Positions 8,592 through 44,574 of a DNA stretch of 64,000 nt are shown here, one piece after another. Made by a program: the position numbers and the translations under genes. Source of the DNA: a virus; IMG/VR virus record IMGVR_UViG_3300043468_001540, positions 1 through 64,000 of that record, one strand, 5' to 3'. The number at the start of each line of letters is the position of its first letter. The first letter of the stretch is position 1. The notes below the pieces were generated by a model. The model had not been told where the DNA came from, ran no database searches, and saw nothing but the letters and a program-made list of their open reading frames with translations.

Positions 8592-8604
8592 ATGTTTATA
8601 AATT

Positions 8605-25067: not shown

Positions 25068-25082
25068 AAATGTTATAAAATC

Positions 25083-26866: not shown

Positions 26867-29398
26867 TTATTTTAAGTCTCTCATTGTTTTATATATTTTG
26901 CAGTCTTGTTTCAAAATTTTTTCAGCAAAAATTGCATCATTTTTAATTTTACCTTTAACTATTACTATATCATTTTCTTCTGGAAACTTTCCCCCATTCT
27001 CTTCTTTGCATGATTCTAATAAATTATGGCGCCCATCGAATAATAAAACCGATACATTCGCGGTGTCATCATTTAAAGATATTTTAAAGTATTTATTATT
27101 ATTTCTAGACTTAGAAACTCTCGTTTCTAAAACCTGACCGACTAATAAAACGGTGTCATTTTGTTCTTTTGTGCCAAAAGCATTTCGAATTGTATCAAAA
27201 TTTTTATTCTTTCTCTTAAAGATATACGTCAAATTTTGACTATAACTGAACCCCAAACAATTTTTTTCATAAAAGTAATTTGTTAATTCTTCGTTTCTAC
27301 TATTTAACAAATAAATTTCTTTATAAGGAGTATATTTCTTTTTAATCGTTTCAAACCTTGATTCTTTAATTTGATTTTTTTCGGCTAAATTCTTTATAAT
27401 CTGTAGAATATCTTTATTCTCAGTTTCATCATGTATAGTTTTAATTTGACGCTTCTCTTTTTCTGATAAAATATTAAAAGTTTGTGCCTCTAAAACAAGT
27501 TTGGATCTTTTTGTACCTAGATCGTCTAAAGCCCCGGCTTGAATCAAAGCCGATAAAACCCCAATATTAAGCCCAGCCTGTTTTGCGGATATAAAACAAT
27601 CAATTTTACTATCATATTTTCCTCTAAATTTTACCAATTTTTCCATTGCATTATCGGAGATCCCTTTGATAGCACTAAGCCCGAATCTTATGTTATTTCC
27701 TTCTATTGTAAAATTAGTATTTGATTTTAATAAATGCGGAGGAAGGAGTTTAATATCGAAAACTGGAAGTTCCTGTTCTATTAGCCGAATTTCTTCCATT
27801 GGATCTGGAAGCTTGTGAATAGAATTTAAACATGACGTAAAAAACTGTAATGGATATTTATACTTTAAATATACGGTTAAGGCTCCAAGATAAGCAACAC
27901 AGAAAGAGTGCGACTTATTGAAACTATAATCTGCTGAATCAAGCATTACTTTCCAGATAGCCTCTGCAACTTGATCTCCAAAATTATTTTGATTACAAAC
28001 CTCGAAAACCTTGTCTTTCCATTTAGGCATTTCATCTTTTTTCTTTTTACCAATAATACGTCGAATATATTCGGACTCATCGGCTGAGAAACCCACGGTA
28101 ACTAGAGCTTGAATTAGTTGCTCTTGATAAAGAGGTAAATTGCGGGTTTCTGCAAAAACTGATTGTAATTTTTTATGGGGAGACTCTCCCGAGAAATTTA
28201 TATAATTCCCCTCGTAAGCTAAAGCTCCCGGTCTAGCGATAGCATTTACGTCGCTAAGCTGATGAATATTAGCTGGTTTAATATTTTTACAAACCCTGTA
28301 AGCACAGTCCGCACTTATTTGATATAAGCCATAAGGAAGAAGGTCGTCTCTTTGTAATTGAGAATATATAAATTCATCCGAATCTAAATTTATATCACTT
28401 AATTTTTCGGGTATATTCTCAAATATATTTTTAATAATTTCATTGCTAATAAGCCCAAGCAGATCAAGTTTGATTCCAAACTTAGCGGCTGTATTCATTT
28501 CATATGAAATAGAAAGTTCGCCATCTTTATTTAGCTCGATAGGAACAAACTCTGTTAATGGAAAATAAGAAATAAAATAGCCGCTTGCGTGAGTTGATTT
28601 TCCTCTGATTAGACCCCTTAGTTTTAAAGCGATTTCGTATGTTTCTTTATACCTGTCAGCCCAATCTTTAAATTTTTCACTATTATTATAAGAATCCTCA
28701 ATATCCTCAACGACTCCAAATATTTTAGCAATATTATCAACTAGAGCACTCGCATCCTCTTCTGAGGCTTCGTTGACAATTTTAAAAACATCTTTAATTA
28801 GAATCTTACCAGAAAATGTAGAAAAAGATGAAATTTTACATACTTTATTTGGATAGCATTCTTTTAACCAGCTAATGATTTCTTCTCTTACTCCACCTAA
28901 GTTAATGTCTACGTCTGGAGCTAGATCGCCTTGTATATAAGTAATCCCATCAATAATTTCTTTTTTAGCTCTAGTTTTAGAAATAAATCGAGTAAAAAAT
29001 AATTTTTTATCAATAGGGTCTACTCCCGTAACCCCTATTAAAAAGAATATCAGGCTTCCTGCCGCGCTACCGCGCCCCCAATCAATAAAAGCGCCGAGTT
29101 CTCTAGCTTTATTTATAACCTTCCAAACCAATAAAAAATAATCAATAAATCCAAGGTCTTTAATAATAGAAAATTCTTCTTTAATTCTATCTAGATATTC
29201 TTTCTTTTTCTCTGCTGGTATTTTGTTTTTAAAATTTTTCCAACCTTCATTTATTAAATTTTGGAGGAACCTCTCATTGGATTCATCATTAGTCGCTAAA
29301 TCATTGCTAGAATGATTTATATCTATATTCGGTAGTCGAACTAAATTTAGATTTGTAATTTCTATATTAGAAAATTTCGATTTAAATTCTTGTATCAT
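26867..29398 (-). CDS. dnaE: DNA polymerase III alpha, catalytic core (no PHP domain)
   Basis: GRGSAAGS, PDVDIN, STHASG, KLDLLGL, YQEQL, YSFNKSH, IRFGLSAIKGI (HhH), C-terminal OB fold. Confidence 0.95.
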   Translation of the reverse strand: MIQEFKSKFSNIEITNLNLVRLPNIDINHSSNDLATNDESNERFLQNLINEGWKNFKNKIPAEKKKEYLDRIKEEFSIIKDLGFIDYFLLVWKVINKARELGAFIDWGRGSAAGSLIFFLIGVTGVDPIDKKLFFTRFISKTRAKKEIIDGITYIQGDLAPDVDINLGGVREEIISWLKECYPNKVCKISSFSTFSGKILIKDVFKIVNEASEEDASALVDNIAKIFGVVEDIEDSYNNSEKFKDWADRYKETYEIALKLRGLIRGKSTHASGYFISYFPLTEFVPIELNKDGELSISYEMNTAAKFGIKLDLLGLISNEIIKNIFENIPEKLSDINLDSDEFIYSQLQRDDLLPYGLYQISADCAYRVCKNIKPANIHQLSDVNAIARPGALAYEGNYINFSGESPHKKLQSVFAETRNLPLYQEQLIQALVTVGFSADESEYIRRIIGKKKKDEMPKWKDKVFEVCNQNNFGDQVAEAIWKVMLDSADYSFNKSHSFCVAYLGALTVYLKYKYPLQFFTSCLNSIHKLPDPMEEIRLIEQELPVFDIKLLPPHLLKSNTNFTIEGNNIRFGLSAIKGISDNAMEKLVKFRGKYDSKIDCFISAKQAGLNIGVLSALIQAGALDDLGTKRSKLVLEAQTFNILSEKEKRQIKTIHDETENKDILQIIKNLAEKNQIKESRFETIKKKYTPYKEIYLLNSRNEELTNYFYEKNCLGFSYSQNLTYIFKRKNKNFDTIRNAFGTKEQNDTVLLVGQVLETRVSKSRNNNKYFKISLNDDTANVSVLLFDGRHNLLESCKEENGGKFPEENDIVIVKGKIKNDAIFAEKILKQDCKIYKTMRDLK

Positions 29399-31791: not shown

Positions 31792-32223
31792 TTACTTTAT
31801 TTGATAGGTTGGTATTTGACACTTTTCTAAAAAATTCAGGCCAGCCGTATCACGATATACATTTTTGTAATAGACTTCTGTTATACCGGACCCATGAATA
31901 GCTTTAGCGCACGCTATACATGGAGAATGAGTAATAAACATTACAGAATTATATCCAGAATCGTGACTTTTTGCTAATTTTTGAATACAATTCATCTCCG
32001 CGTGGATAACTTCTTCTTTTGTAGTATTTTCTTCTGTTTCACATCTATTATCCCATCCGGCGGGAGTTCCATTATATCCAATTGATATTATTCTATTATC
32101 TTTTACAATTAAAGCTCCAACTTTTAAACGTTTTGCGTGAGACAGTTCTGAAAATCTAGAAGCAACGTCCATATAAGCTTTTACCCATTTTGTTTTAATT
32201 TTCATACCATTTAATATTTTCAT
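31792..32223 (-). CDS. dCMP deaminase
   Basis: VGALIV, GYNGTP, HAEMN, SPCIAC. Confidence 0.92.
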   Translation of the reverse strand: MKILNGMKIKTKWVKAYMDVASRFSELSHAKRLKVGALIVKDNRIISIGYNGTPAGWDNRCETEENTTKEEVIHAEMNCIQKLAKSHDSGYNSVMFITHSPCIACAKAIHGSGITEVYYKNVYRDTAGLNFLEKCQIPTYQIK

Positions 32224-33091
32224 CTATAGACTGCTCCCCGAAATCATTTTTAAAAGGGAGTCGAATTTCTAACTGATTTGGATCAAAAAAATCTTTGAAT
32301 TTAGATTTAATTTTTATAGAAGCTTTTTGTCCAGCGAAATTTTTATCTTTATTTGTTGCTATAATAATTTTATTTGGGTCGAGTCTAATGATAGCTTTTA
32401 GCAATCCTTTCCCCAAATCCGTACCGAATGTAACTCCGGTATTTTTAATTCCAGACTCCCATAAAGATAACATATCTCCAATACTTTCCACAAGAATAAT
32501 TTCTCTTTTTTCCGCTATTATATTATAATTAAAAATTAATGGATAAGCCCATTCATTTTTTGCCCCAATATGCTTCCATTTAATTTTGGGGTTTTCGGAG
32601 ACATCTCGTCCAGAAAATCCCCTAATTTTAAACCGTGAATCAAAAATTGGAAAAACATATCTATTATACATTTTACCACTTAAACACAACCCACCTTTAA
32701 ATTGCTTGAGAGTTTCTTCTGAAATTCCTCGATTTTTCCAATAAGAATGATTATCTTTTAAGGAGGATAGGTATTCATGGGGATAAAATTTTGAAGCACT
32801 CGAAAATGGATCTTGGGGTGTTGTATCATTAAACGCGAAATTAAAATATTCGCCATCCGAAGTTAGAAGTGACCTGGCTTGTTCCGTATCTTTTAAATCT
32901 AAAGTAGATTTCAAAAAGTCCTCAATAGAGAAAACTTTACCAGTAACAAAATCTTTTACAATATTTTTATTAAAATATATTGCTATAGAACTTGGGTCAT
33001 TACCCCCCCTGTACTTTGCGCTACAAGTTATATATGAGCCATAATTTTTAGGGTTGCATCCTGCTTGTTTAAGCAGTTCTAAAATTCTCAT
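32195..33091 (-). CDS. DnaG-like primase
   Basis: RGIS, NRYVFPI, GFSGR, TOPRIM LVESIGDMLSL, NDFG. Confidence 0.85.
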   Translation of the reverse strand: MRILELLKQAGCNPKNYGSYITCSAKYRGGNDPSSIAIYFNKNIVKDFVTGKVFSIEDFLKSTLDLKDTEQARSLLTSDGEYFNFAFNDTTPQDPFSSASKFYPHEYLSSLKDNHSYWKNRGISEETLKQFKGGLCLSGKMYNRYVFPIFDSRFKIRGFSGRDVSENPKIKWKHIGAKNEWAYPLIFNYNIIAEKREIILVESIGDMLSLWESGIKNTGVTFGTDLGKGLLKAIIRLDPNKIIIATNKDKNFAGQKASIKIKSKFKDFFDPNQLEIRLPFKNDFGEQSIDENIKWYEN

Positions 33092-34557
33092 AGTAAATTA
33101 TTTTCTTCATTTTGCCTATCAAACAGATTTACACCTACTCCGTTTTGATGATCTATAATATCTTGTAAAGTGCCTTTCTCCTCCACATTGAAATTTTTAA
33201 CATCAAAAGATATAAAGTTTTTACGATATTCAACACGATTGTTTACCATTACCCTTACTAAATCAGAATGTCCATGAGCAAATTCTCCTTGATATCTAGA
33301 GGCTAATTCGATCATTTTATGTGATCCGAATTGAGCACCGTCTTCCGCCTGTTCTTCTAAAGTTTTTCTTCTAAAAATTCCAACGTAAGCTGCAAACCAT
33401 TGGAGTCTATCACTTTGAGCAATAGCGGAACTATCATCCGTTCCATTCTCAGCGCTTCTGTTTAATTGACAAGCTGTTAGAATAGGTATATTTAATCTAA
33501 CCGATAATTCTTTTAATCTATCAACTTTATCTCCGATTAATTGGTATTCTTGTTTATTTTTTTCATTTTCTCCTGTTAGTTTGATATAGTCATAAACAAC
33601 GATAGCCGGGTTACCCCTGCCAACTTGCCCTAAATACCACCTTTGAATAATTGATTCAATTTCTGCAATCGGCTTGCCTGATACTTGAAGATGTTTCACG
33701 CGGCCATTTGTGATAGCAAGTTCTGATCTACTGCTATTCCACTTCGCCAACAATTCTTTATTTTTTTTAAAATTTCCTGTTTCTAGATGCCACATAGGTA
33801 TTCCGGTAATACTACTTGCAATTCGAAATTTAATTACTTCTGTTTGCATTTCCGTATCTAGAATAAGGGCATTCAAATTTGGGTTTATTACCGTCGCTTT
33901 TGAGGCTATATGGCTTAGAATAGTACTTTTTCCATGCTTAGGTCTACTTACCCAAGCATAGAGTTCTCCAGGACGAAGTCCTCCATAATTTTTATTAAAA
34001 GTTTTAAATGGCGTTAAATATCCAGTTTGTGTTATCGGATTTGATGCCCTGTGCTCGATAAGTTCCGCAATTCCACCCAATAAGTCTTCTGGGCTACTAT
34101 CTAAGTCATAAGCTGTAATTTTATCATTGTACATCTTATCTGCCATGGTAATAATTTCATCGGCAGATTTGTCGCCACAGGATGACATCGCTTGAGAGAT
34201 AGAAGTTGCCGTATCTGCAATTTCACGTCTAATGGTAATAGTTTTTAAATTTTTACATGCATCTGATAGTGACTTTTGGCTAATTTTTAAAAATGTTAGG
34301 CTCTCTATGTAATCAAAGATATCAAAATCCTGTTTAAATGAAATTCCTAGATTTTTAATTTTTTCTGCAATTATAACGGGCTCTAATGGTTCATTTTTTG
34401 TTATTTGATTCCTAATAATAGAAAAAATAGTTTTATGACCATTAGAAAAATCATTTTCTGAGATAAAGTCAGAAACTTCAAAAAAAGATTGAGGGTGTTT
34501 TATAAACCCAGCTAAAACATGCTTCTCTATATCGACGCTTCTAATCTGGTTTGACAT
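33088..34557 (-). CDS. dnaB: Replicative helicase
   Basis: GGLRPGEL, SRPKHGKST, DTEM, YDYIKL, CQLNRS. Confidence 0.93.
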   Translation of the reverse strand: MSNQIRSVDIEKHVLAGFIKHPQSFFEVSDFISENDFSNGHKTIFSIIRNQITKNEPLEPVIIAEKIKNLGISFKQDFDIFDYIESLTFLKISQKSLSDACKNLKTITIRREIADTATSISQAMSSCGDKSADEIITMADKMYNDKITAYDLDSSPEDLLGGIAELIEHRASNPITQTGYLTPFKTFNKNYGGLRPGELYAWVSRPKHGKSTILSHIASKATVINPNLNALILDTEMQTEVIKFRIASSITGIPMWHLETGNFKKNKELLAKWNSSRSELAITNGRVKHLQVSGKPIAEIESIIQRWYLGQVGRGNPAIVVYDYIKLTGENEKNKQEYQLIGDKVDRLKELSVRLNIPILTACQLNRSAENGTDDSSAIAQSDRLQWFAAYVGIFRRKTLEEQAEDGAQFGSHKMIELASRYQGEFAHGHSDLVRVMVNNRVEYRKNFISFDVKNFNVEEKGTLQDIIDHQNGVGVNLFDRQNEENNLL

Positions 34558-34560
34558 ATT

Positions 34561-35169
34561 TTATAAATCTAACTTTACTTTAATAGTATTGCAATAGGTT
34601 TCTTCAACTATTTTTTGGATTTCATTTAGGATACATTCTTCACTTAAGAAGGTCGGCACTTTAATTGAACTATCGGCATACTCCCTAATGATTTGATCAT
34701 TTATTGATTCATCCATATTAGCGGGAGGTACCAGACTACCATCCGGTAGCATTCTCTGAATATGAATAAAACAATTTAAAGGTTTTCCTTTTAGCCATGG
34801 AACTTCATCTTTTTCATATTGAAAATAACGAATATCTGGTATAATACATATATCTACGTCGGAATTTTCTAGACTTAGATCTAAGAGGTTTGTCCAATAC
34901 TGGCCATGGGTTTGTTGCCTTTTTACTTTTCCATACCAAACTAATAACTCTCTAAAAATAGACTTTTCCTCGGTATTATCTGAGAACACATTTAAATTTA
35001 ATTTTTCTCGAACAAAAGACTCGCAGTCCTGTTTAAGAGGCGCCGCTAACGGACAAATCTTTATTTTTTTATTTGGAGTGGACAGTTCTAATAATTTTTT
35101 TAGATGTCTTGCGAATGAGTCTTTTCCGGCTCTAGCTACTCCGCTTATTCCAATATAGGACCTTTGCAT
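34561..35169 (-). CDS. dNMP kinase-like P-loop kinase
   Basis: GISGVARAGKD, A.PLK, RELL, IPDIRY..E. Confidence 0.75.
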   Translation of the reverse strand: MQRSYIGISGVARAGKDSFARHLKKLLELSTPNKKIKICPLAAPLKQDCESFVREKLNLNVFSDNTEEKSIFRELLVWYGKVKRQQTHGQYWTNLLDLSLENSDVDICIIPDIRYFQYEKDEVPWLKGKPLNCFIHIQRMLPDGSLVPPANMDESINDQIIREYADSSIKVPTFLSEECILNEIQKIVEETYCNTIKVKLDL

Positions 35170-35210: not shown

Positions 35211-35624
35211 TTATAAAGTCAATGAGAATTTTTCTTCTAGCCATTCCTCCGAAAGAAACTCGAATTCATTCTCAAAAATTTCAATAACCTTAAATCCGTT
35301 TAATTCTAACCACTCATGCTTTTGAAAATCTCTTTTTACGCTATTTTTAAAACCTGTTCTTGTTTTATGAAAATGTTTAACGAATTTTTCGTGCTGCAAT
35401 CCATGGGTTTCAACTGCAATTTTTTTTGTAAAATTAATTAAATCGCATTTCATTCTTGTTCCAAATACAGGGAACTCTTCTACTACCACATGAGTCTTCC
35501 AAAAATTAAAGAAAAATCTTTTAACTTTAAACTGAACTTTGCTTTTGCATGGATCATCCCATTTGACTAAAAATTTATTTATATTTTTATTAACTTCTCT
35601 TCCGAAGATGTTTTTAAATTTCAT
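35211..35624 (-). CDS. DUF559/Vsr-like endonuclease
   Basis: EFPV...D......AVETHGLQH...RD.QK..W...NG..VIEI. Confidence 0.75.
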   Translation of the reverse strand: MKFKNIFGREVNKNINKFLVKWDDPCKSKVQFKVKRFFFNFWKTHVVVEEFPVFGTRMKCDLINFTKKIAVETHGLQHEKFVKHFHKTRTGFKNSVKRDFQKHEWLELNGFKVIEIFENEFEFLSEEWLEEKFSLTL

Positions 35625-36759
35625 TAAGATCGTGCAAAACCATTTTTTTAACTAGATCATTAAATGACGACTTCGGCTTCCACTTAAGCTCGTTTCTCGC
35701 CATACTTGAATCTCCTAATAACAATTCTACTTCTGCTGGTCTATAAAATTTTGTATTAATTTTCATCAAAACTTCCCCAGTATCTTTTCTCAGAGCTTCA
35801 TTTTCTGGACGATGATCGTCTCTATCAAGATTTAAACTAGACCAGTGACAAGGAATTCCAGCGGCGAGAAAAGCTTTTTCTACGAATTCTCGGATGGTAT
35901 GGGTTTCATTAGAGGAAAGAACGTAATCTTTAACTTCTTTTTCCTGGTTAAGCATTAACCAAACCCCCTCAACGAAATCTTCCGCATCGCTCCAATCTCT
36001 TTTCGCGTCGATATTCCCCAGTTCGAGTGGAACAATTTTTTGATTATTATTTATTTCATTCTTAATTCTAGCAATATTTTTTGTAATTTTTCTTGTGACG
36101 AATTCTTCTCCACGACGTACGCCTTCATGGTTGAATAACCACCCCTGAACAGCATAAAGACCATAAGACTCCCTGTAAACTTTTATCAACTGTCTGGAAG
36201 CAGCTTTACTTGCTCCATAAGGGCTTCTAGGTCTTAAGGGGTGATTTTCATCCTGTGGGGAATATAAAACATCTCCAAATTCTTCGCTAGATCCAGCCTG
36301 ATACAAACGACAAGAAGGTTTATATAATCGGATACCTTCTAATAAATCTAGAATTGCTGTAGAATTTGCACTCCACGTTTGTCGAGCAAAATCCCAACTA
36401 CTTGCAACAAAACTTTGAGCGGCAAAATTTATAAAATAATCTGGCTGTAGTTTTTCGATAAGTCTAGATATCGAATGAGCATCTGTTAAATCAAAATTAA
36501 CCAAGTAGAATCTATCGGACTGAATATTTTTAATATTTTTATGATTATAAACACTTAACCTTCTTACTCCGCCAAATATAACATAATCTTGAGTATTTTT
36601 TAGTAGATATTCTACCATAAGACTCCCATCTTGTCCTGTTACTCCTGTAACTACAATACATTTCCTCCCATTTAATGCTATTTTAGCATCTTCAATATTT
36701 AAGATATTCGCTGTATCAATTTTTTTGCTCATGTACAAAGTATTTATATTTTTTTCCAT
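35614..36759 (-). CDS. gmd: GDP-mannose 4,6-dehydratase
   Basis: TGVTGQDGS, AAQSFV, YQAGSSE, PRSPYGASK, FNHE, FVTRKIT, LGN.DAKRDW, RPAEVELLLGD. Confidence 0.95.
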   Translation of the reverse strand: MEKNINTLYMSKKIDTANILNIEDAKIALNGRKCIVVTGVTGQDGSLMVEYLLKNTQDYVIFGGVRRLSVYNHKNIKNIQSDRFYLVNFDLTDAHSISRLIEKLQPDYFINFAAQSFVASSWDFARQTWSANSTAILDLLEGIRLYKPSCRLYQAGSSEEFGDVLYSPQDENHPLRPRSPYGASKAASRQLIKVYRESYGLYAVQGWLFNHEGVRRGEEFVTRKITKNIARIKNEINNNQKIVPLELGNIDAKRDWSDAEDFVEGVWLMLNQEKEVKDYVLSSNETHTIREFVEKAFLAAGIPCHWSSLNLDRDDHRPENEALRKDTGEVLMKINTKFYRPAEVELLLGDSSMARNELKWKPKSSFNDLVKKMVLHDLNEI

Positions 36760-36768
36760 TATATGGAA

Positions 36769-36798
36769 TATATAATAATATTTTTAATTTAAAGTCAA
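36769..36798 (-). promoter_or_regulatory. Sigma70-like promoter
   Basis: TTGACT-N18-TATATA upstream of gmd. Confidence 0.45.
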
Positions 36799-36805
36799 AC
36801 TAATT

Positions 36806-37582
36806 TTATATTTGAACCCAGTTTTCTGGCCGAATGTCTTTATCATCAGAATTATTACTACCAAACCATTCTTTAGGACAAATAATTCGTTTGTTTAGAT
36901 TTCTATTTAACCACGCGCCCCACCAGCTAAATGAGCTATTTGCAATAATATTATCTTTACAGTTAGACATTTGAGCTAAATCTTCTATATTAGAATTTCC
37001 GTCTATAAAAATTGAGTTGCTATGTGTTATATTTTTTTTGCACCACTCTATATCATCTGAAAATATGAATACATTTCCGCTGGGATTTAATATTTCTAAA
37101 GCTTTTTCGTAATAATTTACTGGCAAAATTGGGTGTATATCTCTTAAATTTAAGTAGTCGCCTCTTCTTATATGGAGAGAGCAGGAGTTCTTAAAATCAC
37201 AATCCTTAAATGCTGGTAATTGAATAGACGCCAGGATGTCTTCCCTATGATTTTTAAAAAATTTTTCGCTTTGCCAATAACCGTTTAAAAAATAAATTTC
37301 ATTTTTATCGAAAACAATATCAGTATATGAAAAATTATCGTTTATAATTGTAATATTTTTATTTTTTAATTTTTCAACCACTTCCTGTGTAAGAAAATTA
37401 ATAGGAGTATTAATAATTTTATTTAATTCTAAATTTCTTTTATCAACAACTACTCCAATATTTTCAGAACTATAATAGAAAGATACGTCAAAGTAAACTT
37501 CATGTTCTTTAGATAGTGAGTATCCATAAGCCCATTGAAATAATTGATTACCCAGACCCCCCTGTACTTTAACTATAATCAT
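36806..37582 (-). CDS. GT11 alpha-1,2-fucosyltransferase
   Basis: GGLGNQLFQ, GYWQSEKFF, HIRRGDY, FSDDIEWC, IANSSFSWWGAWL. Confidence 0.93.
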   Translation of the reverse strand: MIIVKVQGGLGNQLFQWAYGYSLSKEHEVYFDVSFYYSSENIGVVVDKRNLELNKIINTPINFLTQEVVEKLKNKNITIINDNFSYTDIVFDKNEIYFLNGYWQSEKFFKNHREDILASIQLPAFKDCDFKNSCSLHIRRGDYLNLRDIHPILPVNYYEKALEILNPSGNVFIFSDDIEWCKKNITHSNSIFIDGNSNIEDLAQMSNCKDNIIANSSFSWWGAWLNRNLNKRIICPKEWFGSNNSDDKDIRPENWVQI

Positions 37583-38241
37583 ATAGTCTTTATTAAAAAG
37601 TTTTTATTTTCTAACAGGAGATCTCCACCGAAATCATATAATATACTCCATTCATTTCCTAAACTTTCTAATATTTGATTTTTACTTGCTTGATTTTCAT
37701 AGAGTTCTTCATTACTATATTCTGTATAGATATAATGTATTTTATCTTTAAAATCTTCGATTCCCTTTATTATATTCAATTCAGCGCCTTGTACGTCCAT
37801 CCAGACAAAATCTATATTTTTTATATTGTTTTCTAAGCAATATGTCTTAAATTTTTTTGTTTTTACTTCTATGGTTTTGTTGAATTTAAGCCATGGTATT
37901 TCTTTAATAAGATTTTTTGGCGTCTTTAAAGATGATGACGCCGACCAATCATTTTTATTTATAAAATCATTATCAGTTGGGCCATAAATAGAGTCATAAA
38001 CATTACCACTAGATAAGTAAAATTTAGAAATACCATCTGTATCAGAAAGGGCATACTCATTTAATTTAATAGGCAAATTTAAATTTTTAAATATTTTGAT
38101 ATTTCTAGGGTCTGGCTCGAAACAGTGCAAGTTTTTAGTTAGTTTTATAAATTCTTTAGTATCAAATCCAAAATGAGACCCTATCTCAAAAAAAATACTA
38201 TTTTCGTTTATATTTTGTTTAATGAAATTATAGATGTTCAT
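37579..38241 (-). CDS. FkbM-family methyltransferase
   Basis: EIGSHFG, FEPDP, IDFVWMDVQGAEL, YTE. Confidence 0.9.
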   Translation of the reverse strand: MNIYNFIKQNINENSIFFEIGSHFGFDTKEFIKLTKNLHCFEPDPRNIKIFKNLNLPIKLNEYALSDTDGISKFYLSSGNVYDSIYGPTDNDFINKNDWSASSSLKTPKNLIKEIPWLKFNKTIEVKTKKFKTYCLENNIKNIDFVWMDVQGAELNIIKGIEDFKDKIHYIYTEYSNEELYENQASKNQILESLGNEWSILYDFGGDLLLENKNFLIKTI

Positions 38242-38900
38242 TTGTTACTTGCTTGGTTTTTATGTATTCTATAATATAATAATAAATCTTTATGTATTCC
38301 GAATTTATACCCTCTTCTTATTGACCTTACCCATAAATCTAAATCTTCTTTCGGTGTCTTATTAATATCATATCTGTTTTCTTTATCTTCCCAAAATCTT
38401 TTATTATAACAAACCGATGGGTGCGCTATAACATTATGCCCCGCCTCCAAATTTTCTTTTATATATGGAGTTACTATATTTTTATATAAAGTTATAACAT
38501 CTTCTTCTTCGGGTCTATTTTGCTCTTCTATATAACAAAAATCACTACTAACTATATCAAGATCATTTTCTTTTATCATTTTAGTTTGTAATAAAATTCT
38601 ATCAGGAGAGTAATAATCGTCCAAGTTTGTATTAAAAACATAATCGCAACCATCATTAAACGCATTATCTAATAATATGTTCATGGCTTCAGCGTAATTT
38701 GATAGCTTCTGCGACCAAAAATTTACTTTATTTTTATTAGTATTTGATACTAATGACGTATGATCATCTCCATAATTTAACTCATAAAATATAAAATCAT
38801 TCTCTGTTTGATTTAACATCGATTCTAATGATTTGTTTACCCACCTATCACTATAAATTTTTTTTATATTACTATGATATATTATAACCCCTCTTTTCAT
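38238..38900 (-). CDS. GT2-like glycosyltransferase
   Basis: SMLNQT, NLDDY..PDR...Q, HPSV, EDLDLW.R, YYRIH.NQ. Confidence 0.85.
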   Translation of the reverse strand: MKRGVIIYHSNIKKIYSDRWVNKSLESMLNQTENDFIFYELNYGDDHTSLVSNTNKNKVNFWSQKLSNYAEAMNILLDNAFNDGCDYVFNTNLDDYYSPDRILLQTKMIKENDLDIVSSDFCYIEEQNRPEEEDVITLYKNIVTPYIKENLEAGHNVIAHPSVCYNKRFWEDKENRYDINKTPKEDLDLWVRSIRRGYKFGIHKDLLLYYRIHKNQASNK

Positions 38901-38903
38901 ATT

Positions 38904-39536
38904 TTAAGTATGTAGATAGCAATTGATACCCTTATCTTTAAATATTGAAATATAAAGATCTTTTTCTTTACATTTGTCTAAAAAATCGGGTCGGTCGATC
39001 CAAAATCTTTCGTGCCACTCAATATAAATTGAATTAATGTGTTTGGCGTACTTGGATTGTATTATTTTTGGTAAAACAATAAACTCTGAACCTTCTATAT
39101 CGCACTTGATGTAAATTTTTGCGTCAAGATCTTTTTTGCAGATTGAGCTTAAAATATCATCTACATCTATGGATTCTACTTCATATTCAATAGAATCAAA
39201 AATAAATCCATTCCCAGAATCAAATTCGGGATTAAAATAAAGCGCATTTGCTCCAGTTTTATATCCTTGTATATAATTGTTTTTACCTGCATCTGACCAC
39301 GCCCCCTTGTGACAATTAAATTTAATATATCCATTCTTATCTAAGATGGCTTTGTTAAAAAATTCGAATGAGTTATATTTTTCAGAAATTTGGCTAAGTA
39401 AAGTTTTAATTTCTTCTATGAGAAGAATGTTTGGCTCGTAACAAAGGACGTTCCATTCTTTATTTATTTCAAGTTTTTCTGTAAATTCCAGTAATCCTTC
39501 GAATTTATGACTTCCAAAGTCTAGAAAATAATTCAT
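38904..39536 (-). CDS. FkbM-family methyltransferase
   Basis: FLDFGS, YEPN, IKCDIEGSEF, IEWHER. Confidence 0.88.
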   Translation of the reverse strand: MNYFLDFGSHKFEGLLEFTEKLEINKEWNVLCYEPNILLIEEIKTLLSQISEKYNSFEFFNKAILDKNGYIKFNCHKGAWSDAGKNNYIQGYKTGANALYFNPEFDSGNGFIFDSIEYEVESIDVDDILSSICKKDLDAKIYIKCDIEGSEFIVLPKIIQSKYAKHINSIYIEWHERFWIDRPDFLDKCKEKDLYISIFKDKGINCYLHT

Positions 39537-40282
39537 TTTAAAATTGATCTAATAACTTCGTTAAAAATTTTTGTTTTTTCGAATAATGGATCGGCGGTCC
39601 CCTTCCAATTAGAGTGCCAGTTTGTGGCAGCCCTATAATGTAAAAATTTCTTGTTTAAATGTAGCTCCATATTATAACCCTTAGTATTTAATTCGTTTTT
39701 CACCAATATATTATTAATTTCATCTGGATATTCGGCTCCGGTATTTTTCATTTCTATTTTATTTGTTTTAAAATAATAATAAGTGAATCCGCCTACATCT
39801 GTTAGTTCTCCGTCAACGACTCCGTTCGAAAAGTCGATATTCTTATCAGGTAATTTTCCCATGTTAAAAACCATAAGACCGTTCCACATATATTTAACGT
39901 GCCCTCTAACTTGTTCAAGGCCCGCAATTAAGCTGTCTTTCATATAATCTATTATATCAAATTGATCGATAAGAAACATATCAGAATCGATAAAAAGGAC
40001 CATCTCTTCGGAATGATTTTTTTTAATTATATTGTCATAAGTCCATTGAACTGTATTTGCACACGCCGTAGATGGACAATGAATATTCTGATATGGCTTT
40101 TTATAATATTTACAATTGTTTTCTGCGCATATTTCTATAAAATTGGCGGATAATTCCGGATCATTAGAATCGTCAACCACATGAAATACAAAAGGGTTTA
40201 GCAAGAATTTATCAAATAATTTTTTTTGCAAAAAAATAAAATTTGGTCGATTAACTACTGTTGTAAATATATTTATAATCAT
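39533..40282 (-). CDS. GT-A fold glycosyltransferase-like protein
   Basis: VVDDS, FIDSDMF (DxD), TDVGG, FLHY. Confidence 0.65.
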   Translation of the reverse strand: MIINIFTTVVNRPNFIFLQKKLFDKFLLNPFVFHVVDDSNDPELSANFIEICAENNCKYYKKPYQNIHCPSTACANTVQWTYDNIIKKNHSEEMVLFIDSDMFLIDQFDIIDYMKDSLIAGLEQVRGHVKYMWNGLMVFNMGKLPDKNIDFSNGVVDGELTDVGGFTYYYFKTNKIEMKNTGAEYPDEINNILVKNELNTKGYNMELHLNKKFLHYRAATNWHSNWKGTADPLFEKTKIFNEVIRSILK

Positions 40283-40287
40283 TATTT

Positions 40288-41019
40288 TTATTCAGTGGGA
40301 TTGTTTATATATGACTTAATGTAAATGTCTCCAAATTCATAAGAAAAATCTTCAATATTTGATAAATATTTTTTTATACTGTCTATATCTTGCCATTCCT
40401 TAAAAAAGAAGTGGTCATTTTCTCTATATACATAGTTATACTCGCAATTTTGATTATTTAATGCGTGTAAATAGTCTATACATTTTTCTGAATTTTTATA
40501 TAACTCTGGGGTAAATTCTATAGATATATATTCTACTGGAGAACTGAGCCCCTTTAGTACATTATATTCAAATCCTTCTACATCAATTTTTATATATTTA
40601 GGTACACCAAATTCACAAATTGAATCGTCTAGGGTACGCGTTGCTACTTGAATTTTATTATTCCATTTAGTCCCAATAAATCTTTCTTTTTCAGCCTCTA
40701 TTATAAAATCTTCAGACATACTTGATAATACGTGCTGGTCAGAAGTATAAAAATCTGCGAATCCTACCGTATCAGATAATGCCGCGTTAACACCTTTAAA
40801 AGAACCATTGGTTCTATTTACCGCGAATCTTTGCATCGCATGATCATAACAATCTTTTTGTGGCTCGAAACCGATTACGGAAGCTCCCAAATATAAAAAA
40901 TATGCAGATTTATTACCTAGGTTTAGCCCAACATCAAAAACTAGCGTGTCTTTTAGTTCAAAACCATAATCCATATGGCCATTGTTAATAAGAGAGTCCT
41001 TACGTTCTATATTTTTCAT
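40288..41019 (-). CDS. FkbM-family methyltransferase
   Basis: FDVGLNLG, FEPQ, TLD, IKIDVEGFEYNVLKG. Confidence 0.9.
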   Translation of the reverse strand: MKNIERKDSLINNGHMDYGFELKDTLVFDVGLNLGNKSAYFLYLGASVIGFEPQKDCYDHAMQRFAVNRTNGSFKGVNAALSDTVGFADFYTSDQHVLSSMSEDFIIEAEKERFIGTKWNNKIQVATRTLDDSICEFGVPKYIKIDVEGFEYNVLKGLSSPVEYISIEFTPELYKNSEKCIDYLHALNNQNCEYNYVYRENDHFFFKEWQDIDSIKKYLSNIEDFSYEFGDIYIKSYINNPTE

Positions 41020-41677
41020 GTTCTTTTACTAATGCTGCAATTCTTGTTCGAGTAGTAATTTGATTAGAAGGTGTGCAATAATCCGCATTTAATATTGTAG
41101 TAGGCGGATTGTCAATAAAATACCTATTCATATGCGATTCGTCATGCCATATAGCAATGATATTTTTTTTAAAATCTTCTCTAATTTTAAAAGAAATAAT
41201 GTCGCACATTTTTAAATATTCTTCTGTCGTTCCCCCATTAAATCCACCCGCAAAATATTCCATGTGCTCATGCTCATAAACGCACGCTAAAGACAAGGGA
41301 TTAGTTTCTGGAGTTCCTCTAGACCCACGAAATGCAGGGTGCTGAGTAGCGACTCTATTACTAAGAATGTCTTCTCCTATATTTGAACAAAATAACATAT
41401 CAGCATCAGAATAAAACAAATAATCCATATCTTTAAATATATCAGAATTTTTAAAGAAAATTTCGTACCGACCTAGGGTCATCCATGGCCAGTCTTTATG
41501 CTCAGTATAAGTTTTTATAATATTTCTACTGCTAGATACCTCTAGCTCTTTGTCACTAAATATAAAATACGTAACATCTCCTGGATTAAAATATTTATCA
41601 GCGCTAGTGATCAGCGGTTGTAGAAAATCTATATATTTATTTGTTGCTATGATTAGCAATCCTATTTTTTTCCTCAT
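41000..41677 (-). CDS. GT6 (ABO blood-group-type) alpha-1,3-GalNAc/Gal transferase
   Basis: IATNKY, SADKYF, WPWMTLGR, DYLFYSDADM, HP, YFAGGFNGG, AIWHDESHMNRYF. Confidence 0.92.
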   Translation of the reverse strand: MRKKIGLLIIATNKYIDFLQPLITSADKYFNPGDVTYFIFSDKELEVSSSRNIIKTYTEHKDWPWMTLGRYEIFFKNSDIFKDMDYLFYSDADMLFCSNIGEDILSNRVATQHPAFRGSRGTPETNPLSLACVYEHEHMEYFAGGFNGGTTEEYLKMCDIISFKIREDFKKNIIAIWHDESHMNRYFIDNPPTTILNADYCTPSNQITTRTRIAALVKEHEKYRT

Positions 41678-42545
41678 TTATATATTTTATAATATCTATA
41701 CGTGGAGACCATTTCAAATCTTTCTTTATTTTATCAATATTTGACTCACTGTACAGTATATCATTAGATCTGTAGTCTTTATATAGAATATTCTGACTAA
41801 TTTGTTTTGCGATATAATCTATTGTATAAGATTTTCCAGTTCCAACGTTATAAGTTAAATTGCCACTAGATGTAAATTCTGCACATTTAATGTTACAATC
41901 GACTACATCTTCTACATGAATAAAATCTCTTGTCTGCTGCCCACCATTAACTAATAGTGGCTCATTTTTTTTATATAAATCAAAGAATTTGTTTAAAACG
42001 GAAGAGTATTCGCTTATGTTGCTATTTTTTCCAAATACATTAAAATATCTTAATATAATAGTATTAAGCCCATAAAGATCAGAATATATTCTACATAAGC
42101 TTTCTCCCAAGATTTTACTCGCGCCATATGTAGTTGTATTCCCAGATATTTCTGAATTTTCGGATACAGGCTTTTTCGAGCATTTATATACCGCAGATGT
42201 TGATGAGAAAATTAACTTTTTAATATTATTTATTCTAGAAGCTTCTAATACATTCGTATTAATAATAGAATTATTTAAACAGCTTTCTCTTGGATTGCGA
42301 AGGCAATAATCTATAGAGACATCGCTAGCCAAATGAAAAACAACGTCTATTCCATTAAAAATAGGAGTGATTTTATCGTAATTTTTTAAATCGATAAAAA
42401 AATATTCAGCATCTTTAAACGTCGTGCAATTATTAAAATTTGAACTTTTATTATCAATTACTCTTACATCATAACCACCATCTATTAGCTTTTCAACAAG
42501 ATTGCTACCTATATATCCCAACCCACCAGTCACCAAACATTTCAT
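41637..42545 (-). CDS. NAD-dependent nucleotide-sugar epimerase/dehydratase (GalE-like SDR)
   Basis: TGGLGYIGS, FSSTSAVY, YGASK, LRYFNVFG, RDFIHVEDV. Confidence 0.9.
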   Translation of the reverse strand: MKCLVTGGLGYIGSNLVEKLIDGGYDVRVIDNKSSNFNNCTTFKDAEYFFIDLKNYDKITPIFNGIDVVFHLASDVSIDYCLRNPRESCLNNSIINTNVLEASRINNIKKLIFSSTSAVYKCSKKPVSENSEISGNTTTYGASKILGESLCRIYSDLYGLNTIILRYFNVFGKNSNISEYSSVLNKFFDLYKKNEPLLVNGGQQTRDFIHVEDVVDCNIKCAEFTSSGNLTYNVGTGKSYTIDYIAKQISQNILYKDYRSNDILYSESNIDKIKKDLKWSPRIDIIKYINEEKNRIANHSNK

Positions 42546-43474
42546 AATAAACTTTCAAACAAATTCATATATGTTTTATCATATATTGAAAAATTAGAAT
42601 TTTCTAGTTTTCCGCCAAGTGAATTTTCATAGTTATCTAAAGTCAAATTGGCATATACACTTCCACTTTTGGCTAAGCTCCTCAAAATATCTGCCCCTTC
42701 TATAAGAGAAGAAGACAATAATTTTGAAGCAAAATCAATTAAAAATACTTCTGGAAAGTTTAAATTTAAAGTCCATTCCGGAGTTTTCATAAAATTTCTT
42801 CTAAAGATTATTCTTCCTAAGCTAGAATATGATTTATCATTATGATAGACTAGCACTTTTGGATAGTGAGTTATTTTAAATCCTGCTTCTCTGCATCTAA
42901 GAGAAAAGTCTGTATCTTCATTATGTTTTCCATCTGCATAATCTTTTCTAGACTTCATTTCATAAATTAAAATATCTTCGTTCCATTTTACTTGATTCCA
43001 TCTATTTTTTTTAATAAGCCATGATTGACCACCAGACATATAGATATAGTCATCTTGTTCTGTATAGTTTAAATTAATATGCCCTTTAATTGGGCTCATA
43101 TAGCAGGAATTGTCCCAAAATCTTGTTCCGTCTGGATTTTTAATACAGGTGGTCAATATATCAAAACTCGGGGCCGTCAATAAATTTTGATACCAATCTA
43201 ATGAAAATAGCATATCGTCATCAGAGATAACAAGATTTTCATATTTTGCTTGCCCACAAGCATTATTTCTTAAACCACCAAGAGAGCCTCGCTCTGCATT
43301 ATATTTATCTTCGATTAAAACTAGTCTAGAATTATTAGGATATTCTAGCCCATCAATATTACCACAAATAATAATCTCATAATTTTGAATATTTAAATTC
43401 AAAATACTTTTAACTTGAAGTTCAAGTTCTGTCTTCTTTTTTCCATTCGTTATAATGATGAAAGAAATATCCAT
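42542..43474 (-). CDS. GT2-like glycosyltransferase
   Basis: ISFIIIT, RN, SDDDM, EDTDFSLR. Confidence 0.8.
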   Translation of the reverse strand: MDISFIIITNGKKKTELELQVKSILNLNIQNYEIIICGNIDGLEYPNNSRLVLIEDKYNAERGSLGGLRNNACGQAKYENLVISDDDMLFSLDWYQNLLTAPSFDILTTCIKNPDGTRFWDNSCYMSPIKGHINLNYTEQDDYIYMSGGQSWLIKKNRWNQVKWNEDILIYEMKSRKDYADGKHNEDTDFSLRCREAGFKITHYPKVLVYHNDKSYSSLGRIIFRRNFMKTPEWTLNLNFPEVFLIDFASKLLSSSLIEGADILRSLAKSGSVYANLTLDNYENSLGGKLENSNFSIYDKTYMNLFESLL

Positions 43475-44574
43475 TACTTAACAAGAGCATTTTTAAATTT
43501 ATTAAATAAGAAAGTGCAAATTGCTCGATTCTCTTCGAGAAAAGTTCTCAACTGTTCTAATCCTTGAATTTTTTCTGGAAAAGTTTGTGAAGTTTCTTTT
43601 AAGATTTCTGCTACAAAGTCTTTATCAAAAGATAACCATGCTCCAGCTTTTTTGGCCATACCCCATTTTAAAAGCATATCAGATATTTCATACTCTAGCC
43701 ATACGCTCTTACCATCGGATCTTCCATGTTTTATAGGATATAAAATCTCTAGACCATCTTTTTCATTTGTTGTTTTTCGTAAAACCAACTTTGCCCAGTG
43801 CCCTATAATCTTATTATTTTCAATGATTTGATCACTTTTGTATCTGGGTTGAAATTCAAAAATCCAGTCAGCATAATGCTGTAAAGCATTCCCGCCAGAA
43901 CTGTTTGTTAATTTTGGATCAGTTTTTGCGTATGGATTAATTTGGACATTTGATCTAACTTGAGAAATAAGACCGCAAATATGTCCAAATGTTGACAGTG
44001 GTAACATTATTCTACGTAAAAAATTCGAAGTCAAAACCGCTCCCGCCGCAACTTTTGCACTATCATCAAAGCCCTTGCTTAGGTCATTTTTTGAAATTAA
44101 TGCGTCCATGCTATCAATTAAAAAGTAGTACCGGATATTTTCAGGATTATTTTGAATTAATTCTAAAATTAATGTTGCTATAGTTTCATATACATTAGAT
44201 TTTAGAACAAAACAGCTTCCCGCTTCCCATTCGGCGGGATTTTCGACAAAATTAACTCCTGAAATATTTTTTACATTAGAGCTTAGTCTACCCTCTGCTT
44301 TAACTAGAAAACCTTTTGAGTTCGGAACTGTCTTCAAAAAATTATTCATTATCAATAGCGCAGAACTAGTTTTACCTCCGCCACTTACCCCCGTAAATCT
44401 TAAAATAGCGGGAATTTCAATTGAGCCTCCTACTTCAGAATCTAAGAGTAAAGATCCCGTAGAGACATTAAAAATGCTACAATCTTCAAAATTGTAATGA
44501 GCGTCTTTATTATCCTTTAAAAAGGATGATAAAATGCTTTTACTGTTATTAGTATTTTCTTTTTCTTTTACCAT
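43474..44574 (-). CDS. recA: RecA/UvsX-like recombinase
   Basis: STGSLLLD, GVSGGGKTS, AEGR, IDSMDAL, ISQVR, SGGNALQHY, KAGAW. Confidence 0.88.
   Translation of the reverse strand: MVKEKENTNNSKSILSSFLKDNKDAHYNFEDCSIFNVSTGSLLLDSEVGGSIEIPAILRFTGVSGGGKTSSALLIMNNFLKTVPNSKGFLVKAEGRLSSNVKNISGVNFVENPAEWEAGSCFVLKSNVYETIATLILELIQNNPENIRYYFLIDSMDALISKNDLSKGFDDSAKVAAGAVLTSNFLRRIMLPLSTFGHICGLISQVRSNVQINPYAKTDPKLTNSSGGNALQHYADWIFEFQPRYKSDQIIENNKIIGHWAKLVLRKTTNEKDGLEILYPIKHGRSDGKSVWLEYEISDMLLKWGMAKKAGAWLSFDKDFVAEILKETSQTFPEKIQGLEQLRTFLEENRAICTFLFNKFKNALVK

Follow-up and report, generated by a model that had tools for sequence, protein, structure and literature searches.

On the minus strand of the 64-kb DNA stretch analyzed here (the window), which comes from an uncultured phage, positions 35614 to 43474 carry ten co-oriented, mostly overlapping genes by which the phage would assemble a glycan entirely in the cytoplasm. 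The activities, step order and product are predicted from sequence, and the balance tips slightly towards a product with an A-type cap, like that of human blood-group A. That such a product is, at the same time, attached to phage proteins is a more tentative proposal. The gene order (GT2-like, SDR, GT6, FkbM, GT-A, FkbM, GT2, FkbM, GT11, Gmd) had been proposed in a first-pass annotation and was confirmed by the open reading frame list and the family assignments. Neighboring genes either overlap by 1-41 nt or lie 3-46 nt apart, which makes them translationally coupled.

The upstream flank is a RecA/UvsX-like recombinase (43474..44574, minus strand; phrog_97, 2e-25), 42-45% identical to the recA of related phage contigs, and its stop overlaps the start of the first cassette gene, g1. 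The downstream edge is an HNH endonuclease (35211..35624; phrog_559, phrog_9084), followed by a dNMP kinase (34561-35169; phrog_139) and a DnaB-like helicase (33088-34557; phrog_19), all on the minus strand. The cassette had been described as inserted between recA and dnaB. This is correct on the recA side, but the HNH endonuclease and the dNMP kinase, as assigned by PHROG, intervene on the dnaB side. In the relatives G001-G003, the HNH gene lies directly between recA and dnaB. In the window, and likewise in three relatives, cassette and replication genes share a single run of one orientation; the insertion site of the cassette is not the same among related phages.

Enzymes of the cassette

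All ten genes are on the minus strand. The third, g3 (41000..41677; PF03414, 118 bits), encodes a DXD-type minimal transferase of the ABO family GT6, with ~225 aa and only the catalytic domain; its score is below the cutoff of the NCBIfam GT6 subfamily model. The best structural match is BoGT6a (4ayj, E 6e-36), while GTA/GTB are matched at E 1e-27. The metal-binding DAD (91-93), H113, A115, the AGG donor loop (143-145) and the catalytic WHDES (177-181) are all recognizable. The AGG loop is that of the GalNAc-transferring BoGT6a, in which the AGGL loop is critical for the choice of UDP-GalNAc over UDP-Gal (PMC3516806). At the acceptor site, g3 has His at A1 and Ala at A2, and its C-terminus has no Trp; in GT6, room for the 2'-fucose is given by a His at A1 together with small A2 and A7 residues (PMC3516806). 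PaGT6 of the DXD clade, which requires Mg/Mn, transfers GalNAc to 2'-fucosyllactose or the H antigen, making the A antigen, but not to LacNAc (PMC3516806). The pattern of A-type specificity residues is kept in 101 of the 109 GT6 homologues. Hence, g3 is a predicted alpha-1,3-GalNAc transferase whose acceptor residues fit a fucosylated acceptor, and the DXD clade, the AGG loop and these residues lend sequence-level support to the earlier reading of a GT6 acting on an H-type acceptor.

The predicted alpha-1,2-fucosyltransferase of family GT11, g9 (36806..37582; PF01531, 105.5 bits; phrog_2644), retains all three motifs of these enzymes (HIRRGDY, IFSDDIEWCKKN and NSSFSWWGAWLN). By its sequence matches, g10 (35614..36759; PF16363, 342 bits) is a clear GDP-mannose 4,6-dehydratase (Gmd) without an Fcl partner: GMDs account for 11 of its 12 PDB matches, with 2z1m ranking first at 263 bits, and it scores 330 bits against TIGR01472, under the equivalog cutoff of 415. 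The extended SDR g2 (41637..42545; PF01370, 173 bits; phrog_540) looks like a GalE-type NDP-sugar 4-epimerase, a candidate source of UDP-GalNAc/Gal. It scores 139 bits against GalE (TIGR01179) versus 78.5 bits against Fcl (NF047922), both under cutoff, and its best PDB matches are the UDP-GlcNAc/Glc 4-epimerases 6dnt and 4zrm. These profile scores and structures thus agree with the first-pass assignments of GT11, Gmd and a GalE-type SDR.

An Fcl function was also considered for g2 and judged unlikely. The catalytic-serine stretch reads SSTSAVY, and the Fcl-type Cys is absent; without the Fcl signature, g2 is an unlikely source of this step. No Fcl or second SDR was found within the 64-kb window, as had been stated before, so the supply of GDP-fucose depends on genes outside it. 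Of the two suppliers suggested for the Fcl step, the host or the SDR, the latter is therefore no longer favored. Gmd is without Fcl in six related contigs of the same phage family; in the relative G003, a true Fcl follows Gmd.

Three further glycosyltransferases are predicted. The GT2-like g1 (42542..43474) has a DDD motif, invariant in six homologues, and a helical C-terminal extension of ~80 aa; its Pfam GT2 match is under the cutoff. In Foldseek, its AF2 model (pLDDT 81) matches the GT2 enzymes AvpGT, K4CP and TarS (E 5e-11). The second, g5 (39533..40282), gave no match in Pfam, NCBIfam or PHROG and belongs to no named family. It has 20 viral homologues in which D99 and D101 of the DSD motif are invariant, and its AF2 model (pLDDT 93) displays a GT-A fold, with Foldseek matches to GT-A. 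Judged from these models, g1 and g5 are GT-A glycosyltransferases. So is g7 (38238..38900), as a GT2 member: PF00535 is matched at 21.5 bits, under the cutoff, and the family profile built from ten homologues retrieves the GT2 structures 6p61 (8.5e-11) and SpsA. This protein is 66% identical to its homologue in the loci L006/L007.

The FkbM-family methyltransferases are g4 (40288..41019), g6 (38904..39536) and g8 (37579..38241), with 86.5, 42.6 and 73 bits against TIGR01444 (cutoff 37.7 bits). The divergent g6 also matches PF05050 at 23.9 bits (cutoff 22.7) and has no homologue in any of the loci compared. Next to the GT6 of megaphage LR745206 lies an FkbM gene with 48% identity to g4, and g8 is 71% identical to the gene that follows the g7 homologue in L006/L007.

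Occurrence and closest known systems

GT6 and GT11 are rare in phages, being present in only 72 and 103 of 50,697 phage records, respectively. Within 10 kb of GT6 in 80 viral loci, however, GT11 was found in 62, Gmd in 43 and Fcl in 38, and the two transferases are adjacent in S-CAM9, B23, S-PRM1 and DSL-LC02. In comparison, GT11 lies within 10 kb in only 4 of 28 cell-labelled GT6 loci. The linkage GT6-GT11-Gmd(-Fcl) in viruses is thus strongly non-random. The core set is shared with P-SSM2, in which it was annotated as early as 2005, and with many other phages; the P-SSM2 cluster and these counts bear out the earlier remark that the parts are not new and occur in cyanophages. Particular to the window are the three FkbM genes, the orphan Gmd, the best relatives that are mixed gene by gene and the variable cassette site. 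The middle of the cassette also varies among relatives.

The 'LPS' cluster of the Prochlorococcus phage P-SSM2 (PSSM2_257-271; Sullivan et al. 2005, PMC1079782) is, like the cassette, a co-oriented single cluster. Identities with the window are 41% for Gmd, 33% for GT11, 32% for the FkbM-type gene, 41% for the DXD/AGG GT6 and 36% for the g2-type SDR. This T4-like cyanomyovirus carries the cluster among host-like genes (pstS, hli, psbA in the stretch examined), and the cluster also holds GT2s and, unlike that of the window, an Fcl-type SDR, a GT1 and a 2OG oxygenase. In the window phage, the replicase is of the DnaE type, and the cassette, with its three FkbM genes and no Fcl, is part of the replication module. 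In a quick tree, g3 lies on a long branch among the GT6s of large phages and megaphages; this viral clade is the sister of a Dependentiae/Chlamydiae-type bacterial clade and stands apart from the P-SSM2 clade. The AGG/DxD GT6 is conserved over two deep viral clades, one with P-SSM2 and the other with the family of the window and very large phages.

In E. coli O86, GT6 is paired with GT11 and gmd/fcl, and in bacterial ABH-mimicking loci the glycan is started on a lipid carrier and exported by a Wzx/Wzy-type route, functions that were not found in four module-carrying phages. The O86 cluster is cited as an ABH-mimicking O-antigen system (ref. 13, as cited in PMC3516806). The GT6s of bacterial O-antigen loci differ from g3 in having NXN for DXD, in being metal-independent and in a membrane-binding BHB tail, absent from DXD-type GT6s (PMC3516806). 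Closer are the minimal DXD GT6s of P-SSM2 and Parachlamydia (PaGT6; Thiyagarajan et al. 2012, PMC3516806), which share the ~225-aa size, the AGG loop and the absence of this tail; GalNAc transfer has been measured for PaGT6, whereas for g3 it is predicted. Bacteroides ovatus BoGT6a shares the conserved catalytic and acceptor residues and needs a fucosylated acceptor.

Chlorovirus PBCV-1 resembles the window in its virus-encoded GMD, soluble cytoplasmic glycosyltransferases and sugar methyltransferase domain (PMC5408694). Chlorovirus capsid glycans arise in the cytoplasm, with viral GMD/GMER and this domain taking part; those of PBCV-1 contain fucose, and a terminal rhamnose presumably carries a methyl group (PMC5408694). 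PBCV-1 differs from the window phage in being a giant virus of eukaryotes, in encoding GMER, in lacking a GT6/GT11 pair and in having a known acceptor, Vp54. Mycobacteriophage glycosyltransferases, according to Freeman et al. 2023 (as cited in PMC12619734), have been shown experimentally to decorate capsid and tail-tube subunits; in that account, they are likewise phage-encoded but of other families, in phages of actinobacterial hosts.

Proposed product and target of the glycan

The pathway would start with Gmd, committing GDP-mannose toward GDP-fucose, with the epimerase/reductase (Fcl) step provided by the host or by phage DNA outside the window. The GalE-like SDR would provide UDP-GalNAc (or UDP-Gal), and g1, g5 and g7 would make a short chain ending in a beta-galactoside; the beta-galactosyltransferase step is assumed. 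GT11 would attach Fuc-alpha-1,2, the metal-dependent GT6 would put alpha-1,3-GalNAc on the fucosylated Gal to yield the A-type terminal trisaccharide, and the three FkbM enzymes would O-methylate sugars. It is unlikely that the product is not A-like, with the Gmd product reduced, for want of Fcl, to GDP-D-rhamnose or another 6-deoxyhexose and with GT11 and GT6 using other donors or acceptors. PBCV-1 GMD by itself also yields GDP-D-rhamnose (PMC5408694), and the Gmd without Fcl in the window and six related contigs, the Gmd and SDR scores under equivalog cutoffs and the long GT6 branch would fit such a product. However, the GDP-fucose motifs of GT11 are intact, the A-type specificity residues are those of the 101 homologues, and a true Fcl is paired with Gmd in other family members and most viral loci, so that the orphan Gmd looks like a lost step that the host could supply.

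No acceptor gene lies inside the cassette. Our leaning, at slightly under even confidence, is towards cytoplasmic glycosylation of phage (virion) proteins; host lipid-linked envelope glycans are a less probable target, and the remainder falls to others. A protein target is favored because none of the ten cassette proteins has a TM-like segment and no Bac_transf, WecA-type, Wzx or Wzy/ligase families were found in four complete or near-complete module-carrying phage genomes. It is also favored by the tailless DXD-type GT6s, by five glycosyltransferases that would be enough for a de novo glycan, by the conservation of the cap enzyme in both viral clades and, by analogy, by the chlorovirus and mycobacteriophage precedents. 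Poly-Ser proteins are encoded at 11598-12287 and 13835-17827; they were counted for a protein target, have no counterparts in three related module-carrying contigs and were not identified as virion proteins.

With the same chemistry, soluble enzymes on the cytoplasmic side of the membrane might instead act on host undecaprenyl-linked O-antigen or capsule precursors, exported by the host flippase and ligase. The infected-cell surface would then be altered, with receptor masking, phage exclusion or less progeny loss on debris as a result. All characterized bacterial GT6 and GT11 relatives serve O-antigen synthesis (PMC3516806), which by analogy speaks against a protein target, and cyanophage clusters of such genes, as in P-SSM2 and S-SCSM2R, are read as LPS/cell-surface genes (PMC1079782, PMC12801897). 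The variable cassette middle recalls serotype loci, and co-orientation with replication genes would suit a pre-lysis effect needing time, if the run is expressed early. This explanation is nevertheless doubtful: since the four module phages yielded no initiating transferase, flippase, polymerase or ligase, a methylated five-sugar unit foreign to the cell would need to be accepted by the export machinery of very different hosts. Furthermore, the phage GT6 type has no membrane-binding tail, and the phage looks lytic, leaving little time for surface-glycan replacement.

That the sugars go onto phage DNA, as hydroxymethyl-pyrimidine glycans, and not onto protein or lipid is very improbable. The cassette does lie inside a replication and nucleotide-metabolism module adjoining a dNMP kinase, a 2OG-Fe(II) oxygenase gene is present at 700-1278, and phage clusters of GT-A and epimerase genes place mono- to trisaccharides on 5hmC (bioRxiv 10.1101/2023.12.21.572611). 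However, no ThyA-like hydroxymethylase, C5-cytosine methyltransferase or TET/JBP-type oxygenase was found by Pfam/PHROG in most open reading frames of at least 100 aa. For GT6, GT11 and Gmd, which serve in glycan capping, no precedent on DNA is known, the window carries an ordinary ThyX and dCMP deaminase, and the P-SSM2 module lies outside the replication region.

Layout of the cassette and its phage lineage

By its gene content, the window is viral. A DnaE-type polymerase (26867-29398), a DnaB-like helicase (33088-34557) and a RecA/UvsX-like recombinase (43474-44574) are encoded together with a primase, a dNMP kinase, an HNH endonuclease, NrdA, NrdB, ThyX and dCMP deaminase. Among cultured phages, no near relative was found, and a megablast search of the cassette region against phage records gave no match. 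The replicase, primase, DnaB, RecA, RNR and two further glycosyltransferases are shared, at 30-75% identity, with three related contigs carrying the module (G001-G003), which are phages of roughly 125 kb according to CheckV completeness.

The region 35614-43474 is filled by ten minus-strand ORFs that overlap by 1-41 nt or are spaced 3-46 nt apart; at its two ends, the cassette overlaps the recA stop (first ORF) and the start of the HNH gene (last ORF). The ORF list and the family calls bear out the gene order proposed by the first-pass annotation (g1 GT2-like, g2 SDR, g3 GT6, g4 FkbM, g5 GT-A, g6 FkbM, g7 GT2, g8 FkbM, g9 GT11, g10 Gmd). The GC content is ~30% across the window, the cassette being no different. 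Neither Rfam families nor tRNAs were detected in the window, and a sigma-70 promoter scan gave sites not in excess of those in shuffled sequence.

The cassette lies between recA and the HNH gene in the window, between nrdA and recA in G001 and G002, and after dnaB, primase and exonuclease genes in G003. The order recA-HNH-dnaB is kept in all three relatives, with at most one small ORF ahead of dnaB. Both ends of the cassette are conserved, one with g1 and GT6, the other with GT11 and Gmd. The middle varies, with FkbM-g5-FkbM-g7-FkbM in the window versus GT2, GT32-like and class I methyltransferase genes in the relatives. The genes g1, GT11 and Gmd are nearest to the window phage's own family (52-60%), while g7 (66%), g8 (71%) and the SDR (50%) are nearest to a 210-kb phage (L006/L007), g4 to a 635-kb phage (48%) and g5 to loci of the GT6 clade typified by the cyanophage P-SSM2 (57-61%). 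For g6, no relative was found among the fetched loci. In a quick tree, the GT6 of the window has a long branch and is grouped, with weak support, with L006/L007 and not with the other nine family members. On these comparisons, the ancestry of the cassette genes appears mosaic, and the cassette appears to move as a unit in which middle genes are swapped.

Enzymes of the predicted A-type cap

The GT6 gene g3 (41000-41677, minus strand) matches PF03414 with 118.2 bits (cutoff 25) and the NCBIfam subfamily model NF041524 with 170.6 bits, under its cutoff of 250. The E-value is 6e-36 against BoGT6a of Bacteroides ovatus and 1e-27 against the human A and B transferases (GTA/GTB). Its DAD motif (91-93) corresponds in the alignment to NAN in BoGT6a and to DVD in GTA, E180 of WHDES to the catalytic Glu (E192/E303), and the donor loop YFAGGF (141-146) to A155GGL158 of BoGT6a, a segment critical for the use of UDP-GalNAc over UDP-Gal (PMC3516806). 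Small residues in this loop, AGG or LGG, go with the choice of UDP-GalNAc. The AGG loop is present in 101 of 109 GT6 homologues, and DxD is universal among the viral ones. [quoted passage not shown] The acceptor residues H113 and A115 of g3 are clear from the alignment; site A7 falls outside the aligned region, so that for g3 only the absence of Trp from the C-terminus (208-225) can be stated. A DXD-type, minimal, metal-dependent GT6 clade comprises P-SSM2, marine metagenome sequences and PaGT6 of Parachlamydia, and PaGT6 accepts the H trisaccharide or 2'-fucosyllactose for GalNAc transfer and shows no activity on LacNAc (PMC3516806). The earlier proposal of an H-to-A pathway is therefore largely justified at the level of sequence (DAD, H113, A115, AGG and WHDES); the pathway itself is a reasonable reading and stays a prediction. 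A donor polymorphism of the A/B kind was not observed among phage GT6s: almost all have AGG, and IGA occurs once. This variant, at 7960-8640 of the GT6-bearing locus L023, is the only viral GT6 of the set with IGA for AGG, and its loop is reminiscent of MGA in the B (galactose) transferase.

Enzymes of family GT11 have three conserved motifs, HxRRGDY, SDD..W and SxFSWW. All three are found in g9, a predicted alpha-1,2-fucosyltransferase (36806-37582, minus strand; PF01531, 105.5 bits, cutoff 23.9), as HIRRGDY, IFSDDIEWCKKN and NSSFSWWGAWLN. No solved relative of g9 is detected by sequence search; a prophage GT11 makes 2'-fucosyllactose (PMC12748750). The remaining glycosyltransferases of the cassette, all on the minus strand, are g1, g5 and g7. 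The product of g1 (42542-43474) falls below the Pfam GT2 cutoffs and has an invariant DDD motif; its AF2 model (pLDDT 81) gives Foldseek matches to GT2 enzymes with an E-value of 5e-11. For g5 (39533-40282), no family match was obtained; its DSD motif is invariant in 20 viral homologues, and it yields a confident GT-A model (pLDDT 93). The family profile of g7 (38238-38900) matches the GT2 structures 6p61 and SpsA. The three methyltransferases g4, g6 and g8 score 86.5, 42.6 and 73 bits, respectively, against TIGR01444 (cutoff 37.7), and 60.3, 23.9 and 57 bits against PF05050 (cutoff 22.7). A recent duplication of one another was ruled out.

Two enzymes of sugar-nucleotide synthesis complete the set. 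The product of g10 (35614-36759, minus strand) is a probable Gmd with 342 bits to PF16363 and 330.5 bits to TIGR01472, under the cutoff of 415; 11 of its 12 PDB matches are GMDs (235-263 bits), and its SSE and YGASK are aligned with catalytic residues of 2z1m. The extended SDR g2 (41637-42545, minus strand) has GalE as its best NCBIfam model (TIGR01179, 139 bits, under the cutoff of 262), and its nearest solved relatives are UDP-GlcNAc/Glc 4-epimerases. Its catalytic-serine stretch is SSTSAVY, and YGASK provides the YxxxK motif. We take this combination to be GalE-like, as it lacks both the TDE/TSE acid of dehydratases/decarboxylases and the Cys of Fcl, the GDP-L-fucose synthase acting after Gmd. 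No Fcl was found in the window: its only two SDRs are g2 and Gmd, and neither is an Fcl, in agreement with the first-pass annotation. The accompanying suggestion that the SDR might supply this step did not hold: g2 scores 78.5 bits against the Fcl model (cutoff 500), shares 25% identity with a genuine viral Fcl, and has SSTSAVY in place of SSCIYP.

A true Fcl (451 bits) follows Gmd in the related contig G003, and this protein served as the probe for Fcl across the viral loci. Gmd is paired with Fcl in most of them, including P-SSM2 (PSSM2_258), and L005, L008 and L012 retain the pair. Gmd stands alone in six contigs of the window's phage family (L004, L011, L015-L017 and L019) and in two others. 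Its recurrence in six contigs of the family makes the orphan Gmd a lineage trait, not an assembly gap, and indicates that the second GDP-fucose step was repeatedly lost, or else not acquired. Most simply, Fcl would be provided by the host, and the phage Gmd would raise the flux at the committed step. Alternatively, the orphan Gmd might also reduce its own product to GDP-D-rhamnose, as the GMD of PBCV-1 does (PMC5408694).

Genomic linkage and known relatives

Within 10 kb of GT6, 62 of 80 viral loci carry GT11, 57 a g2-type SDR, 43 Gmd, 38 Fcl, 29 g5 and 19 FkbM. GT11 lies near GT6 in only 4 of 28 cell-labelled loci. Of 50,697 phage records, 72 contain GT6 and 103 contain GT11, and the two genes are often adjacent. 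This linkage fits the predicted need of GT6 for a fucosylated acceptor.

Judging by gene content, this kind of cassette is already known, and the window would be one more case. Genes 257-271 of P-SSM2 encode Gmd, an Fcl-type SDR, GT2s, GT11, an FkbM-type methyltransferase, GT6 and a g2-type SDR, and were called an LPS cluster in 2005 (PMC1079782). Comparable cell-wall gene sets have been reported in S-SCSM2R (PMC12801897), and PHROGs families already exist for the GT6, GT11, FkbM and epimerase genes. The gain from the window alone is modest: a further lineage (as judged from relatives, a phage of ~125 kb with a DnaE replicase), a case of Gmd retained without Fcl, and evidence of unit-wise movement with exchange of middle genes. 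If the prediction is true, many aquatic phages from unrelated lineages would make the same vertebrate-like A-type cap. This would bear on the spread of the ABO enzyme family among viruses, bacteria and animals, and on whether particle glycosylation is common in tailed phages.

Glycan target and host

Phage proteins, glycosylated in the cytoplasm, are the acceptor to which we give the most weight, with a probability approaching an even chance. None of the ten cassette proteins has a TM-like segment, all ten enzymes being soluble; the five glycosyltransferases could assemble a glycan from scratch; and phage-type GT6s are devoid of the membrane-binding tail of O-antigen GT6s (PMC3516806). The cap enzymes are conserved over two deep viral GT6 clades, P-SSM2 versus the window family and very large phages. 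Precedents for virion glycosylation exist in chloroviruses (PMC5408694) and, according to a passage in PMC12619734, in mycobacteriophages. Remodelling of the host envelope is a tentative alternative, somewhat less probable: the characterized bacterial relatives of these enzymes act on O-antigen, it is the standing hypothesis for the cyanophage clusters, and the cassette shares its orientation and gene run with the replication genes, as would fit early expression. In favour of a protein acceptor, an initiating transferase, flippase, polymerase or ligase was found in none of four complete or near-complete phage genomes bearing the module, and PF02397, PF00953, PF01943 and PF04932 are absent from the sequences G004 and G005, P-SSM2, the megaphage LR745206 and G001. 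Glycosylation of the DNA itself is unlikely, because, unlike in the model of Pyle et al., a generator of hydroxymethyl-pyrimidines is absent from the scanned ORFs. That scan, covering all but a few short ORFs, gave no source of 5hmC/5hmU (ThyA-like hydroxymethylase, or C5-MT with a TET-type oxygenase) and detected only ThyX, a dCMP deaminase, a dNMP kinase and a PF13640 oxygenase.

Five minus-strand genes elsewhere in the window encode a 2OG-Fe(II) oxygenase (700-1278), a T4-type RNA ligase (4602-5687), a metallophosphoesterase (6272-6979), ThyX (7721-8374) and dCMP deaminase (31792-32223). This looks like an ordinary set of genes for nucleotide metabolism and repair, and nothing in it suggests a modified-base pathway.

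If phage proteins are indeed the acceptor, poly-Ser proteins of the window are possible candidates, as a weak, window-specific hint. Runs of 5-8 Ser occur in proteins encoded at 11598-12287 (plus strand), 13835-17827 (plus) and 56577-58508 (minus), the 1330-aa one having 19 runs and the 229-aa one ending in a C-terminal poly-Ser tail. No structural identity was obtained for the first two in the PHROGs search, and they have no relatives in the viral contigs or in the three related contigs with the module; the protein at 56577-58508 likewise lacks a homologue in these three. Poly-Ser proteins of this marked kind are missing from those three contigs, which weakens the idea, as these relatives retain the module. 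A more specific version of the virion reading, which we consider rather improbable, is a phage 'serotype locus' with conserved ends (g1 and GT6; GT11 and Gmd) and a freely exchanged middle (glycosyltransferases and methyltransferases), coating virion proteins with a methylated, A-type-capped glycan. If true, a particle-borne shield or adhesin would be common to phages of unlike hosts, from cyanomyoviruses to megaphages.

Three weak hints point to a host among the Bacteroidota. The closest GT6 (64%) is on L088, a 31-kb contig labelled as an uncultured Flavobacterium MAG, which also carries a dNMP kinase, GT2, FkbM, SDR, GT11 and the start of Fcl; this contig may itself be of phage origin and have been placed in a Flavobacterium bin. 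In the searched phage records, the nearest GT6s are on two entries of about 640 kb, and the top-ranked polymerase match, with an identity of only 27%, comes from a Chryseobacterium phage; both are counted as hints of Bacteroidota.

In total, glycosyltransferase genes of the window number at least eight, with nine GT domains: those of the cassette, a GT25-GT61 fusion and two of phrog_2170. The latter (49669-50772, minus strand, and 52703-54616, plus strand) are 36-45% conserved in all three related contigs and, by this conservation, appear to belong to the core gene set of the lineage, unlike the middle genes of the cassette. A second glycan block lies beside the polymerase (24276-26864, minus strand), with a polysaccharide pyruvyl transferase (PF04230) followed by the 593-aa GT25-GT61 fusion. 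The adjacent gene (23266-24252, minus strand) encodes a 328-aa phrog_7595 protein, 55-79% conserved, whose middle is acidic and whose C-terminal domain is basic and contains Cys. Its homologue adjoins the cassette in G001, G002 and G003, and in the window it adjoins the pyruvyl transferase/GT25-GT61 block instead.
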